Origin: an uncultured Chloroflexia bacterium
GTDB taxonomy: Bacteria > Chloroflexota > Limnocylindria > Limnocylindrales > CSP1-4
NCBI GenBank assembly: GCA_963814125.1
Contig: CAWFBR010000001.1
Location: forward strand, 218,340 to 282,339
Direction: 5' to 3'
Length of the DNA: 64,000 bases
The notes under the pieces are model-generated. The model searched no databases, had not been told where the DNA came from, and saw only the letters and a list, made by a program, of their open reading frames with translations. Positions 31,418 through 32,935 of the stretch are shown here, one piece after another (within the stretch, counting starts at the first letter, position 1; each line of letters begins with the position of its first letter). The position numbers were made by a program, and so were the translations under genes.

Positions 31418-32920
31418 TCATTCCGCCAGCTTTGCCGCGCTGGCGCGCACGTCGTCCAGGGTGCCCGCCAGGAAGAAGGCCTGCTCCGGCAGGTCGTCCA
31501 CCTTGCCCTCCAGGATTTCCTTGAACGACGCGACCGTGTCGCGGATCGGCACGTAGACTCCGGGCCGGCCGGTGAAGACCTCCCCCACGTGAAACGGCTG
31601 GCTGCTGAAGATCTGCAGGCGCCGAGCCCGCGCAACGGTGGCCTTGTCCTCCTCGGAGAGTTCGTCGATCCCCAGAATCGCGATGATGTCCTGCAGGTCG
31701 CGATAGCGCTGCAAGACGCGCTGCACTTCGCGAGCCGTGTCGTAATGCTCCTCGCCCACGATCAGCGGATCGAGCACTCGTGAGGTGGACGTCAGCGGGT
31801 CGACCGCCGGATAAATACCCAGCTCGGCGATGGCCCGCTCGAGGCGGATCGTCGAGTCGAGGTGGCCGAAGGTGGTGGCCGGGGCCGGGTCGGTGTAGTC
31901 GTCCGCCGGCACGTAGACCGCCTGGAGCGACGTGATCGAGCCCTTCTTGGTCGAGGTGATCCGCTCCTGCAGGGCGGCCATCTCGGTGGCAAGGTTCGGT
32001 TGGTAGCCCACTGCCGATGGCATTCGGCCCAGCAGCGCCGAGACTTCCGAACCGGCCTGCGTGAAGCGGAAGATGTTGTCGATGAAGAGGAGGACGTCGC
32101 GGCCTTCCTGGTCCCGGAAGTACTCGGCTATGGTCAGCGCGGTCAGCCCGACCCGCTGCCGGGCGCCAGGCGGCTCGTTCATCTGGCCGAAGACGAACGC
32201 TGTCTTTTCGATGACGCCCGACTCGGTCATCTCGCGGATCAGGTCGTTGCCCTCGCGCGAGCGTTCGCCCACGCCCGCGAAGACGGAGTAACCCGCGTGC
32301 TCCGAGGCGACGTTGCGGATCAGTTCCTGGATGATGACCGTCTTGCCAACGCCGGCGCCGCCGAAGACACCGATCTTCCCGCCCTTGGCGAACGGGCAGA
32401 CGAGGTCGATGATCTTGATGCCGGTTTCGAAGATCTCCGTCTCGGTGATCTGCTCGTCGAACGCGGGGGCCGGGCGATGGATCGGCAGCCGCTCGGACTT
32501 GCCTAAGGGCCCTTTGTTGTCGATCGGCTCGCCCAGGACATTGAAGACACGGCCGAGAGTCAGCTGGCCCACCGGCACCGTGATAGGCCCGCCGGTGTCC
32601 ACGGCCTCCGCCCCCCGAGCCAGACCGTCGGTAGTGGTCATGGCCACGCTGCGGACCCAGTTGTTGCCCAGATGCTGCTGGACCTCGCAAACGATTGCTA
32701 CGCCGTCAGCTCGCGAAACCTCTACGGCGTTGTAGATCCCAGGCAGCTTGCCGGCTGGAAACTCTATATCGACGACCGGGCCGGTGATCTGGATCACGCG
32801 GCCGATGGCCGTGCGGCCGATGGCCGTGCGGCCGACGGCCGTGCGGCCGATGGCCGTGCGGCCGGTCGCGGCATGTGCGGCGGACGCCATGGTCGTGTTG
32901 CAGCCTCCTGTCGAAGTCAC
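31418..32920 (-). CDS. atpD: F1 ATP synthase beta subunit. N-terminus contains a (GRTAI)n repeat if translation starts at 32920 or 32890.
   Basis: Canonical AtpD throughout ([16 protein letters not shown]…). An alternative GTG start at 32797 would place the repeat in the leader. Confidence 0.95.
32798..32857 (-). repeat. Tandem 15-bp repeat (GCGGCCGATGGCCGT ×4, one variant). It encodes (GRTAI)4 in the atpD frame.
   Basis: Direct reading of 32798–32857, plus a partial fifth unit. Confidence 0.8.
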
Positions 32921-32935
32921 CCGTAGGGTGACTCC

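Follow-up and report, generated by a model that had tools for sequence, protein, structure and literature searches.

The locus that we analyzed lies within a 64-kb window, the whole stretch of DNA under study, from a soil or freshwater Chloroflexota bacterium whose atp operon occupies the minus strand. Open reading frames for atpH (35447-35989), atpA (33866-35398), atpG (the gamma subunit, 32936-33787), atpD (the F1 beta subunit, 31418-32890), and an epsilon-like protein (30849-31328) place the gene in an atpA-atpG-atpD-atpC context, with subunit names assigned by reading the translations and from Pfam labels at homologous loci, such as PF00231 in the homologous atpG genes of the relatives L081 and L082. 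With its start at ATG 32890 and its stop codon at 31420-31418, atpD encodes a 490-aa protein with the three-domain architecture of a beta subunit, matching PF02874 (residues 32-100), PF00006 (157-370), and PF22919 (378-464), all above cut-offs, and containing the Walker A motif GGAGVGKT. Its best PDB match is 2qe7_D (E=3.8e-224), with an alignment that starts at residue 30. The beta-barrel, or crown, domain (residues 32-100; 32591-32797, minus strand) begins at V32, encoded by GTG 32797-32795, and is preceded by an N-terminal tail of 31 codons (32798-32890, minus strand) that falls outside the Pfam and PDB alignments.

Codons 10-31 of atpD form an array of 15-bp units (32798-32864, minus strand), arranged head-to-tail and in frame, as in a coding VNTR or minisatellite. 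Tandem Repeats Finder describes it with a period of 15, 4.5 copies, 96% matches, no indels, and a score of 127, the highest among the 41 rows returned for the 64-kb window. On the plus strand the copies read GCGGCCGATGGCCGT twice, GCGGCCGACGGCCGT, GCGGCCGATGGCCGT once more, and then GCGGCC. Three copies are thus identical, one differs by a T/C change, and the fifth is incomplete, in agreement with an earlier sequence-only reading, which had also stated that the array is in frame with the beta-subunit ORF. Read on the minus strand, the array is (GGC CGC ACG GCC (A/G)TC)x4 followed by GGC CGC; the four full units (32863-32804) supply codons 10-29, and the partial copy GGC CGC (32803-32798) encodes G30 and R31. 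Unique sequence flanks it on both sides (ATGGCGTCCGCCGCACATGCCGCGACC ... GTGATCCAGATCACCGG). A pattern search of the 64-kb window with the 15-mer GGCCGCACGGCCRTC, allowing at most one mismatch, recovered four occurrences, all inside the array, against 0.12 expected from shuffled controls (0 of 100 shuffles gave four). Because the array sits inside a CDS and its 15-mer is confined to it across the 64-kb window, it does not behave as a REP element or dispersed palindrome. The unit is self-complementary (CGGCC-ATC-GGCCG), and the arms of the array are quasi-palindromic over 28 nt with 75% complementarity; as single-stranded DNA, the plus strand of the array is predicted to fold into a hairpin of -36.1 kcal/mol (z=-4.2).

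Whether the array is translated depends on where atpD begins, and comparison with relatives indicates that translation starts at ATG 32890 and that the array is translated. The Shine-Dalgarno sequence AGGAGG (32904-32909, minus strand) lies 13 nt upstream of this codon, and in five relatives (L001, L002, L003, L005, and L083) an AGGAGG is found 11-13 nt before the homologous ATG, which in each case opens a tail of the form MA(T/S)AA. The sequence-only reading had proposed an ATG at either 32920 or 32890; the second choice is retained, whereas the codon at 32920 is in fact GTG, in frame and non-conserved. The atpG stop TAG (32938-32936) shares its frame with atpD. In L083, where the atpG stop is likewise in frame, no ATG, GTG, or TTG occurs between that stop and the atpD ATG, so the array of this relative must lie downstream of the start. 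Codon usage points the same way: in the atpD frame, the array has a GC3 of 100%, compared with 65% and 80% in the two alternative frames, and the codons used (GGC, CGC, ACG, GCC, ATC, and GTC) are common in four neighboring genes, with ACG second only to ACC. The tails of the 154 clade proteins begin with M and end with G-R or G-K before VIQITG, and their changes in length nearly always keep the reading frame, L004 being the sole exception. The repetitive N-terminal extension of AtpD that had been suspected is thus upheld, by the conserved start and Shine-Dalgarno sequence and by the array codons in the atpD frame.

The same data bear on the opposite possibility, that translation starts at GTG 32797 and the repeat belongs to a 138-bp structured, non-coding intergenic region between atpG and atpD. 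GTG 32797 is a potential in-frame start, and the region folds strongly; however, no purine-rich Shine-Dalgarno sequence precedes this GTG, which is simply codon V32 of a motif that is near-invariant across relatives. The G-R immediately before V32 is conserved as well, including in the best PDB homologues (GR-I/V-IQ), and AGGAGG and the ATG are kept upstream in all close relatives. Together with the frame-preserving tail lengths of the clade and the codon bias of the array, these observations render a non-coding leader very improbable. Fixing the start at ATG 32890 yields the 490-aa protein and sets aside both the longest ORF, from GTG 32920, and the internal GTG start. An antisense ORF on the plus strand (32672-32926, 84 aa) was dismissed because it lies wholly opposite atpD in 67% GC sequence that is rich in spurious ORFs.

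The spacer between the two genes holds a structure of its own, a predicted 10-bp RNA stem-loop, GGAGUCACCC-UAC-GGGUGACUUC (32913-32935, minus strand), which follows the atpG stop directly and contains GTG 32920. It includes an 8-bp inverted repeat, without mismatches, around a 3-nt loop; it falls within an 18-nt insertion relative to L083, occurs once in the window, and has no U-run and no terminator call. A promoter and terminator scan of 32400-33300 found nothing, and Rfam returned no match at the gathering threshold on either strand of the whole window. The RNA fold of 32770-32940 (minus strand) reaches -91.6 kcal/mol (z=-3.7), with a two-tier hairpin formed by every adjacent pair of units. 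These folds raise the possibility that the array acts as RNA, with a GC-rich hairpin stack from +28 to +94 slowing early elongation or altering mRNA stability and so tuning beta against gamma in the polycistronic atp transcript, and the separate stem-loop behind the atpG stop would fit such a role. Yet structure of this kind is an automatic consequence of a self-complementary unit, and the arrays of sister lineages are much less structured (the L083 array has a far weaker single-stranded DNA fold, z=-1.4), and in relatives with single-copy tails this structure is wholly absent. No Rfam family accounts for the region, and the array starts 27 nt past the ATG, probably outside the ribosome initiation footprint. 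We therefore regard a function of the array at the RNA level as improbable.

At the protein level, the N-terminus reads MASAAHAAT-(GRTAI/V)4-GR, 31 residues in all, and gives way to the conserved beta-barrel from V32. PDB homologs align only from AtpD residues 28-30, residues 1-31 have no Pfam match, and AlphaFold2 assigns residues 1-23 a pLDDT below 50, with the first strand predicted at E29-36. The tail is mildly basic and, on this modeling, probably disordered. It is located at the membrane-distal top of F1, outside the conserved fold, and is probably of little or no consequence for catalysis. A pentapeptide-repeat fold (the PF00805-type beta-helix) was considered and rejected: there is no Pfam match, only four units are present, GRTAI is unrelated to the A(D/N)LXX motif, and model confidence is very low for most of the tail.

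To place the array in context, we compared beta-subunit tails across 154 clade sequences. Tail length ranges from 10 to 35 residues, and 100 of the 154 tails have 11, the usual Limnocylindria form being MATAAPxATGR. In L002, the same codons encode one TAIGR unit (ACG GCC ATC GGC CGG). L083, L084, L081, and P0157 share the 31-residue tail MATATPAAT RRKAT GRKAT GHKAT GHTAI GR, and the DNA behind it is itself an array (period 15, 4.6 copies, and 87% matches in Tandem Repeats Finder) in a protein of 490 aa, as in the window. A third form, MPPAPHATTGR TAKGR TTTGGR AAGR PAGR PANGR, is found in L082 and P0155; it runs to 35 residues with five degenerate units. Copy number and unit sequence thus vary among relatives, from the single TAIGR of L002 to the four additional diverged units of L083. 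It had been suggested that either reading of the repeat is atypical for such a conserved gene; this is fair for the near-perfect tandem repeat, which is unusual, but variable beta tails as such are common, both in the clade and among some solved beta chains, such as 8j0s_D. It had also been proposed that orthologs with an identical repeat count would mark a fixed, ordinary linker; L083, the closest ortholog, does have the same unit count and tail length, which favors a fixed, linker-like tail, although its units differ in sequence.

The exact (GRTAI)4 array was absent from other public sequences in our protein searches, gene-position index, and metagenome scan. The public gene-position index held no exact match to the window AtpD, in either its 490-aa or 500-aa version, or to AtpG. 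A protein search with the first 53 residues returned short fragments only, nearly all with ordinary tails and none with a GRTAI copy-number variant; one sequence, P0121, has a 21-residue, partly repetitive tail. When metagenomes were scanned with a degenerate two-unit pattern, the L083-type array alone was recovered, on two JGI contigs, with no window-type array and no match in other genes. Because the exact array was found in no other public assembly, its copy number could be an artifact of assembly, a short repeat having been expanded or collapsed so that the true number of units differs. Against this, the entire array spans just 67 bp, below typical sequencing read length, and one internal unit is marked by the A/G variant. 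Moreover, the nearest lineage also carries four additional units at this position, and its array is identical in four independent assemblies, including contigs of 130 kb and 161 kb. With homologous arrays of equal or comparable length assembled independently, the suspicion of an artifact, raised by the sequence-only reading, is quite improbable.

The L082-type array is likewise identical in two MAGs, and copy number did not vary among the assemblies examined from either sister lineage (four and two, respectively). This bears on the proposal that the repeat is a phase-variable contingency locus, switching atpD expression or form at high frequency. The proposal draws on the presence of a slippage-prone repeat near a gene's 5' end, but a 15-bp unit is unable to shift the frame, the array is not part of a promoter, and the scan returned no promoter-like site. 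In addition, the arrays are identical among the assemblies of each sister lineage, and the atpD product is an essential housekeeping enzyme. The earlier suggestion of a contingency or slippage-prone locus hence separates into two parts: an origin by slippage-type amplification is favored by the data, whereas contingency, given a unit length that is a multiple of three and the uniform sister lineages, is highly improbable.

We consider it likely that the repeat is an in-frame coding minisatellite that arose by slippage-type amplification of an ancestral tail and is largely tolerated. Because most Limnocylindria relatives have an 11-residue tail, and one relative has a single TAIGR in the same codons, the window array can be read as an amplification of the last tail codons. 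The founder would be the final five codons of the ordinary Limnocylindria tail, T-A-I-G-R (ACG GCC ATC GGC CGC), amplified in tandem presumably through replication slippage or unequal recombination. The self-complementary unit probably aids slippage, by forming hairpins in single-stranded DNA. Since 15 bp is divisible by three, slippage alters the length of the tail alone and not the reading frame.

Comparison with L083 suggests a timescale for these events. Outside the tail, the two atpD genes are 94.6% identical in protein and 88.4% in DNA, while the arrays are 81.7% identical in a gap-free alignment. Codons that differ non-synonymously make up 9 of 20 in the array compared with 25 of 459 in the core; the tail evolves fast at the protein level. 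At four-fold degenerate sites, 34.9% of positions differ, a Jukes-Cantor (JC) distance of 0.47, from which ~14 neutral changes would be expected in each lineage over 60 nt, and yet the units of the window array differ from one another at no more than one position. Units so nearly identical, set against a neutral divergence of 0.47 from the nearest relative, suggest recent homogenization or re-expansion. An array at this site is probably older than the split from the two sister lineages, and the window copy would have been homogenized or re-expanded much later than that split. Alternatively, independent expansions may have reached an equal length, in place of inheritance followed by homogenization.

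The coincidence in length also introduces the main competitor of a largely tolerated repeat, namely that selection maintains the basic GR-repeat tail, in both length and charge, as a functional appendage. Three such tails, flexible and positively charged, would then bind a partner from the top of the F1 crown (the delta/b peripheral stalk, a different protein, or some polyanion). The window and L083 both have a 31-residue tail and a 490-aa protein despite their differing units, and all three lineages retain G-R or G-H in their units, apart from R-R in the first unit of L083. Long tails in the clade (n=29) have a mean net charge of +2.5 compared with +0.9 for short tails (n=125), and lysine is frequent in them despite a GC-rich genome, in which the base composition disfavors its use. 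The equal length in the nearest relative and the basic, lysine-containing character of long tails may mean that the tail is selected and not neutral. Most clade members, however, suffice with 11 residues, even P0003, which is 89.5% identical to the window AtpD over the first 95 core residues. Non-synonymous differences from L083 affect nearly half of the array codons (9 of 20), the tail is modeled with low confidence and has no family match and no known partner, and the GR in every unit may just echo the founder unit. On balance, a selected appendage appears rather unlikely. A more specific proposal seems to us less likely again: that a Limnocylindria subclade has a selected, basic G-R-x-A-x repeat tail of ~20 residues, present three times per complex at the membrane-distal crown. 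Concerted evolution would replace its units while its length stayed constant (31 residues in two lineages with 0.47 substitutions per neutral site between them), and the tail would take part in a contact that bacterial ATP synthases are not known to make, for example by anchoring a partner or polyanion or through modulation of the peripheral stalk.

An in-frame, largely tolerated minisatellite has partial parallels in known systems. AtpD of Mycobacterium tuberculosis (8j0s_D) resembles the window protein in having a non-conserved stretch before the G-R/K-V-x-Q/R-V/I-x-G-P-V-V-D motif at the beta-barrel start, with an alignment beginning at chain residue 19 (18 residues in) and at window residue 28. 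We know of no lineage-specific N-terminal extension of a bacterial F1 beta subunit that is a tandem repeat; that of the window differs from such extensions in being a near-perfect array of five residues repeated four times, traceable to the last five codons of the ancestral tail. Among coding VNTRs, the 24-bp Xr repeats of Staphylococcus aureus spa are an in-frame example, and such loci share with the window array head-to-tail, translated units whose length is a multiple of three, turnover by slippage or unequal recombination, and concerted evolution of units. Classic coding VNTRs mostly belong to surface or secreted proteins, and their strain-level copy-number polymorphism is used for typing, whereas the window array lies in the catalytic subunit of an essential enzyme, and no polymorphism was observed within the two sister lineages. 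In contingency loci, the repeat unit is 1-7 bp long and not divisible by three, or the repeat is located in a promoter spacer, and slippage switches expression on or off. The loci of this kind in Haemophilus and Neisseria are similar to the window array in placing repetitive, slippage-prone DNA near the 5' end of an ORF, but the window unit is 15 bp and in frame, and slippage there changes tail length alone. Our search of the literature on beta N-terminal extensions and on Limnocylindria found nothing specific; in a paper on the Acanthamoeba ATP synthase, the extension belongs to malate dehydrogenase and not to beta (PMC13632647).

Elsewhere in the window, the gene for ribosomal protein bL21 (46571-47269, minus strand) encodes an A/K-rich C-terminal extension that contains 2.6 copies of a 27-bp repeat (score 114). 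Like AtpD, bL21 is a housekeeping protein with a basic, low-complexity terminal extension holding an in-frame tandem repeat, but its extension is C-terminal, and both unit and composition differ.

As the repeat only lengthens a variable and probably unstructured tail, we view it as a small evolutionary curiosity that calls for no new mechanism, and it is chiefly useful for annotation and as a modest case study. If the tail were functional, it would add a new accessory feature to the bacterial F1 crown, although the present evidence does not require a function. The array is a clean case of a bacterial coding minisatellite whose self-complementary units evolve in concert, and it illustrates that even an essential enzyme that evolves slowly can have a fast-evolving terminal repeat on its catalytic subunit.

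At the 5' end of atpD, Tandem Repeats Finder (TRF) detects an array of period 15 at 32798–32864 (minus strand; 4.5 copies, 96% matches, no indels), whose score of 127 is the highest among 41 rows across the window. On the plus strand the copies read, in order, GCGGCCGATGGCCGT, GCGGCCGATGGCCGT, GCGGCCGACGGCCGT, GCGGCCGATGGCCGT and GCGGCC, so the four-copy repeat with one variant and a partial copy described in the sequence-only reading is real. With at most one mismatch allowed, the unit occurs four times in 64 kb, each time within the array (0.12 expected from shuffles). On the minus strand the codons ATG (32890) GCG TCC GCC GCA CAT GCC GCG ACC precede the units GGC CGC ACG GCC ATC, then the same ending in GTC, ATC and ATC, followed by GGC CGC GTG ATC CAG ATC ACC. 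The array reaches 100% GC3 in the atpD frame, whereas the alternative frames give 65% and 80%, and its codons GGC, CGC, ACG, GCC, ATC and GTC are frequent in the operon, with ACG ranking second to ACC.

The atp operon is encoded on the minus strand, with atpH at 35447–35989, atpA at 33866–35398, atpG at 32936–33787 (stop TAG, 32938–32936) and the longest atpD ORF at 31418–32920. AGGAGG (32909–32904) precedes ATG 32890 with a 13-nt spacer. Scanning GTDB species genomes assigns the window to Chloroflexota, in class Limnocylindria or a close relative of it; the best AtpD matches are the loci L001 (92%), L002 (86%), L003 and L004 (84% each) and L005 ('Candidatus Limnocylindrales', 82%). In L001, L002, L003 and L005, an ATG encoding MA(T/V)AA... 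lies 11–13 nt downstream of AGGAGG, and L083, the closest relative found, likewise carries AGGAGG upstream of the homologous ATG; this distance is unusually long and is conserved in all five and the window. In L083 the atpG stop lies in the atpD frame, and no ATG, GTG or TTG separates it from the ATG. Among 154 sequences from Limnocylindria relatives (the clade), the tail preceding the barrel domain starts with M, ends directly before V-I/V-Q-I-T-G and spans 10–35 residues; length changes therefore preserve the frame. In the L004 MAG (~2980–3020), the conserved ATG is one base out of frame with the barrel-coding region, likely an assembly indel error rather than biology.

Because of the conserved AGGAGG and ATG, the L083 stop, the frame-keeping tails and the GC3 and codon usage of the array, we conclude that the predicted start is ATG 32890, that the array is translated and that AtpD comprises 490 residues. 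This agrees with the earlier proposal of a repetitive N-terminal extension from that codon. The alternative "ATG at 32920" is in fact a GTG, located inside a stem-loop and within an 18-nt insertion missing from L083. A start at GTG 32797, which would leave the repeat in an intergenic leader, is not supported: no purine-rich Shine-Dalgarno site precedes this codon, which is V32 of the protein, and both the clade and the best solved homologs conserve the G-R/K before it.

The 10-bp stem-loop (32935–32913) begins directly after the atpG stop, within the insertion relative to L083, and has a perfect 8-bp core (AGTCACCC/GGGTGACT) and a 3-nt loop. It occurs once in the window, has no U-run and is absent from L001–L005; it could influence the stability of the atpG-atpD mRNA or the coupling of translation. 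Downstream, the epsilon-like ORF (30849–31328, minus; 159 aa) has a basic, proline-rich C-terminal end (…RGPRGTARSEREALRRATPPRNAKPPGG) extending ~25 residues past the usual epsilon length, and 4 nt separate its stop from the start of a murA-like ORF (29517–30845, minus).

The modal clade N-terminus is the 11-residue MATAAPxATGR (100 of 154 sequences); the remainder have 10 (n = 18), 12 (n = 7) or more (n = 29) residues. L002 holds the window unit as a single copy at the homologous position (ACG GCC ATC GGC CGG), so the window array derives from tandem amplification of the tail's final five codons. L083, a 130-kb JGI contig whose AtpD core is 94.6% identical and whose protein is also 490 aa, has a 31-residue tail as in the window (MATATPAAT RRKAT GRKAT GHKAT GHTAI GR). 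The identical tail is found in four assemblies: L081 (ENA; TRF period 15, 4.6 copies, 87% matches), L083 and L084 (JGI, 130 and 161 kb) and the protein P0157. On the 2.4-kb L081 contig the AtpD ORF (P0001, 1768–2244) ends at 158 aa, while the near-identical L083 gene encodes 490, probably reflecting an assembly error or chimeric contig end. A third lineage is represented in two NCBI MAGs (L082/P0002 and P0155; core identity 90.8% over 131 residues) and carries the 35-residue tail MPPAPHATTGR TAKGR TTTGGR AAGR PAGR PANGR, an array so degenerate that TRF misses it. In this tail the initial two units (GRTAK, GRTTT) and the H6 codon agree with the window, indicating common descent of an array at this site. 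Other close relatives have ordinary or slightly extended tails: MATAAPSATGR in P0003 (89.5% identity across the initial 95 residues of the core), MATAALTSIGTNGPTAVGK in L001 and MATAAPTSIGKTANGR in P0156.

Between the window and L083, DNA identity is 88.3% in atpG, 88.4% in the atpD core and 81.7% in the array (49/60, without gaps). Non-synonymous differences affect 9 of 20 array codons and 25 of 459 core codons; protein-level constraint on the tail is much weaker than on the core. At core four-fold degenerate sites, 34.9% differ (JC distance 0.47); an inherited four-unit array evolving freely would be expected to accumulate ~14 substitutions per lineage in 60 nt. The window units, however, differ from one another at 0–1 positions, with all third codon positions identical, and in L083 three units share two derived changes (AAG, ACC). 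Simple inheritance fails to account for either pattern, which instead indicates concerted evolution, whether by homogenisation (slippage or conversion) or recent re-expansion. Separate expansions in the two lineages could also have reached the same length by chance. No length polymorphism was seen within the sister lineages (four assemblies of the L083 type, two of the L082 type), so the arrays change over the time that separates species and not inside populations. Public sequence searches found no conspecific of the window. The proposals of an assembly artefact and of a contingency locus were not borne out; the unit is a multiple of 3, which sets the array apart from phase-variation loci by definition.

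The unit is self-complementary (CGGCC-ATC-GGCCG), and the array consequently holds 28-nt arms that are 75% complementary. As ssDNA, it folds at −36.1 kcal/mol (z −4.2) on the plus strand and −29.0 kcal/mol (z −2.2) on the coding strand, compared with −18.8 kcal/mol (z −1.4) for the diverged L083 array and −8.0 kcal/mol (z −1.2) for a 41-nt segment around the L002 single copy, which forms only a 5-bp hairpin. From general knowledge of repeat instability, such hairpins would assist slippage, and self-complementarity was likely a mechanistic aid to expansion. The RNA of 32770–32940(−) also folds stably (−91.6 kcal/mol, z −3.7), and a role for the array as RNA is conceivable but unsupported: the folding is a consequence of the repeat unit, relatives do not share it, no Rfam family threshold is reached in the window, and a scan around the array and junction found no promoter or terminator.

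Pfam domains and the PDB match identify the protein as a genuine AtpD. The barrel domain (PF02874) begins at residue 32, and alignments to solved beta subunits begin at residues 28–30 (best, 2qe7_D, E = 3.8e-224, from residue 30). In an AlphaFold2 model of residues 1–130 (39-sequence alignment; mean pLDDT 80.5), residues 1–23 lack secondary structure and have pLDDT <50, and the strands begin with E29–36. Based on these boundaries and the low pLDDT, the array-encoded segment is probably disordered and outside the conserved F1 architecture. In established F1 structures the beta-barrel crown sits at the membrane-distal top, from which the tails would project. N-terminal extensions on beta are ordinary, as the alignment of solved 8j0s_D to the window AtpD begins at chain residue 19; of the suggestion that the locus is atypical for a conserved gene, only the repeat structure stands, and it is the sole unusual feature of this tail.

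Elsewhere in the window, an ORF at 46571–47269 (minus) whose N-terminus looks like ribosomal protein bL21 shows the same theme: its long A/K/E-rich, basic C-terminal extension contains an in-frame repeat (46707–46777; period 27, 2.6 copies, score 114, second-best of the window) encoding KGKAAKAAP. Five shorter repeats with periods of 15 or 18 bp, both multiples of 3 (17169–17208, 29286–29322, 48060–48088, 49896–49925 and 50994–51030; 1.9–2.7 copies, scores 46–53), suggest that small in-frame duplications occur frequently in this GC-rich genome. The AtpD tail has no Pfam match, ruling out a pentapeptide-repeat domain, and its array lies in coding sequence and has no second occurrence in the window, ruling out a REP-like element.

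A functional tail is improbable, even though the window and L083 tails are equal in length, long clade tails carry a mean net charge of +2.5 versus +0.9 for short ones, and lysine is frequent in long tails despite the GC-rich genome. Most probably, the tail does little, being a floppy and mildly basic (+5) segment that is tolerated. By definition the array is an in-frame coding VNTR or minisatellite.
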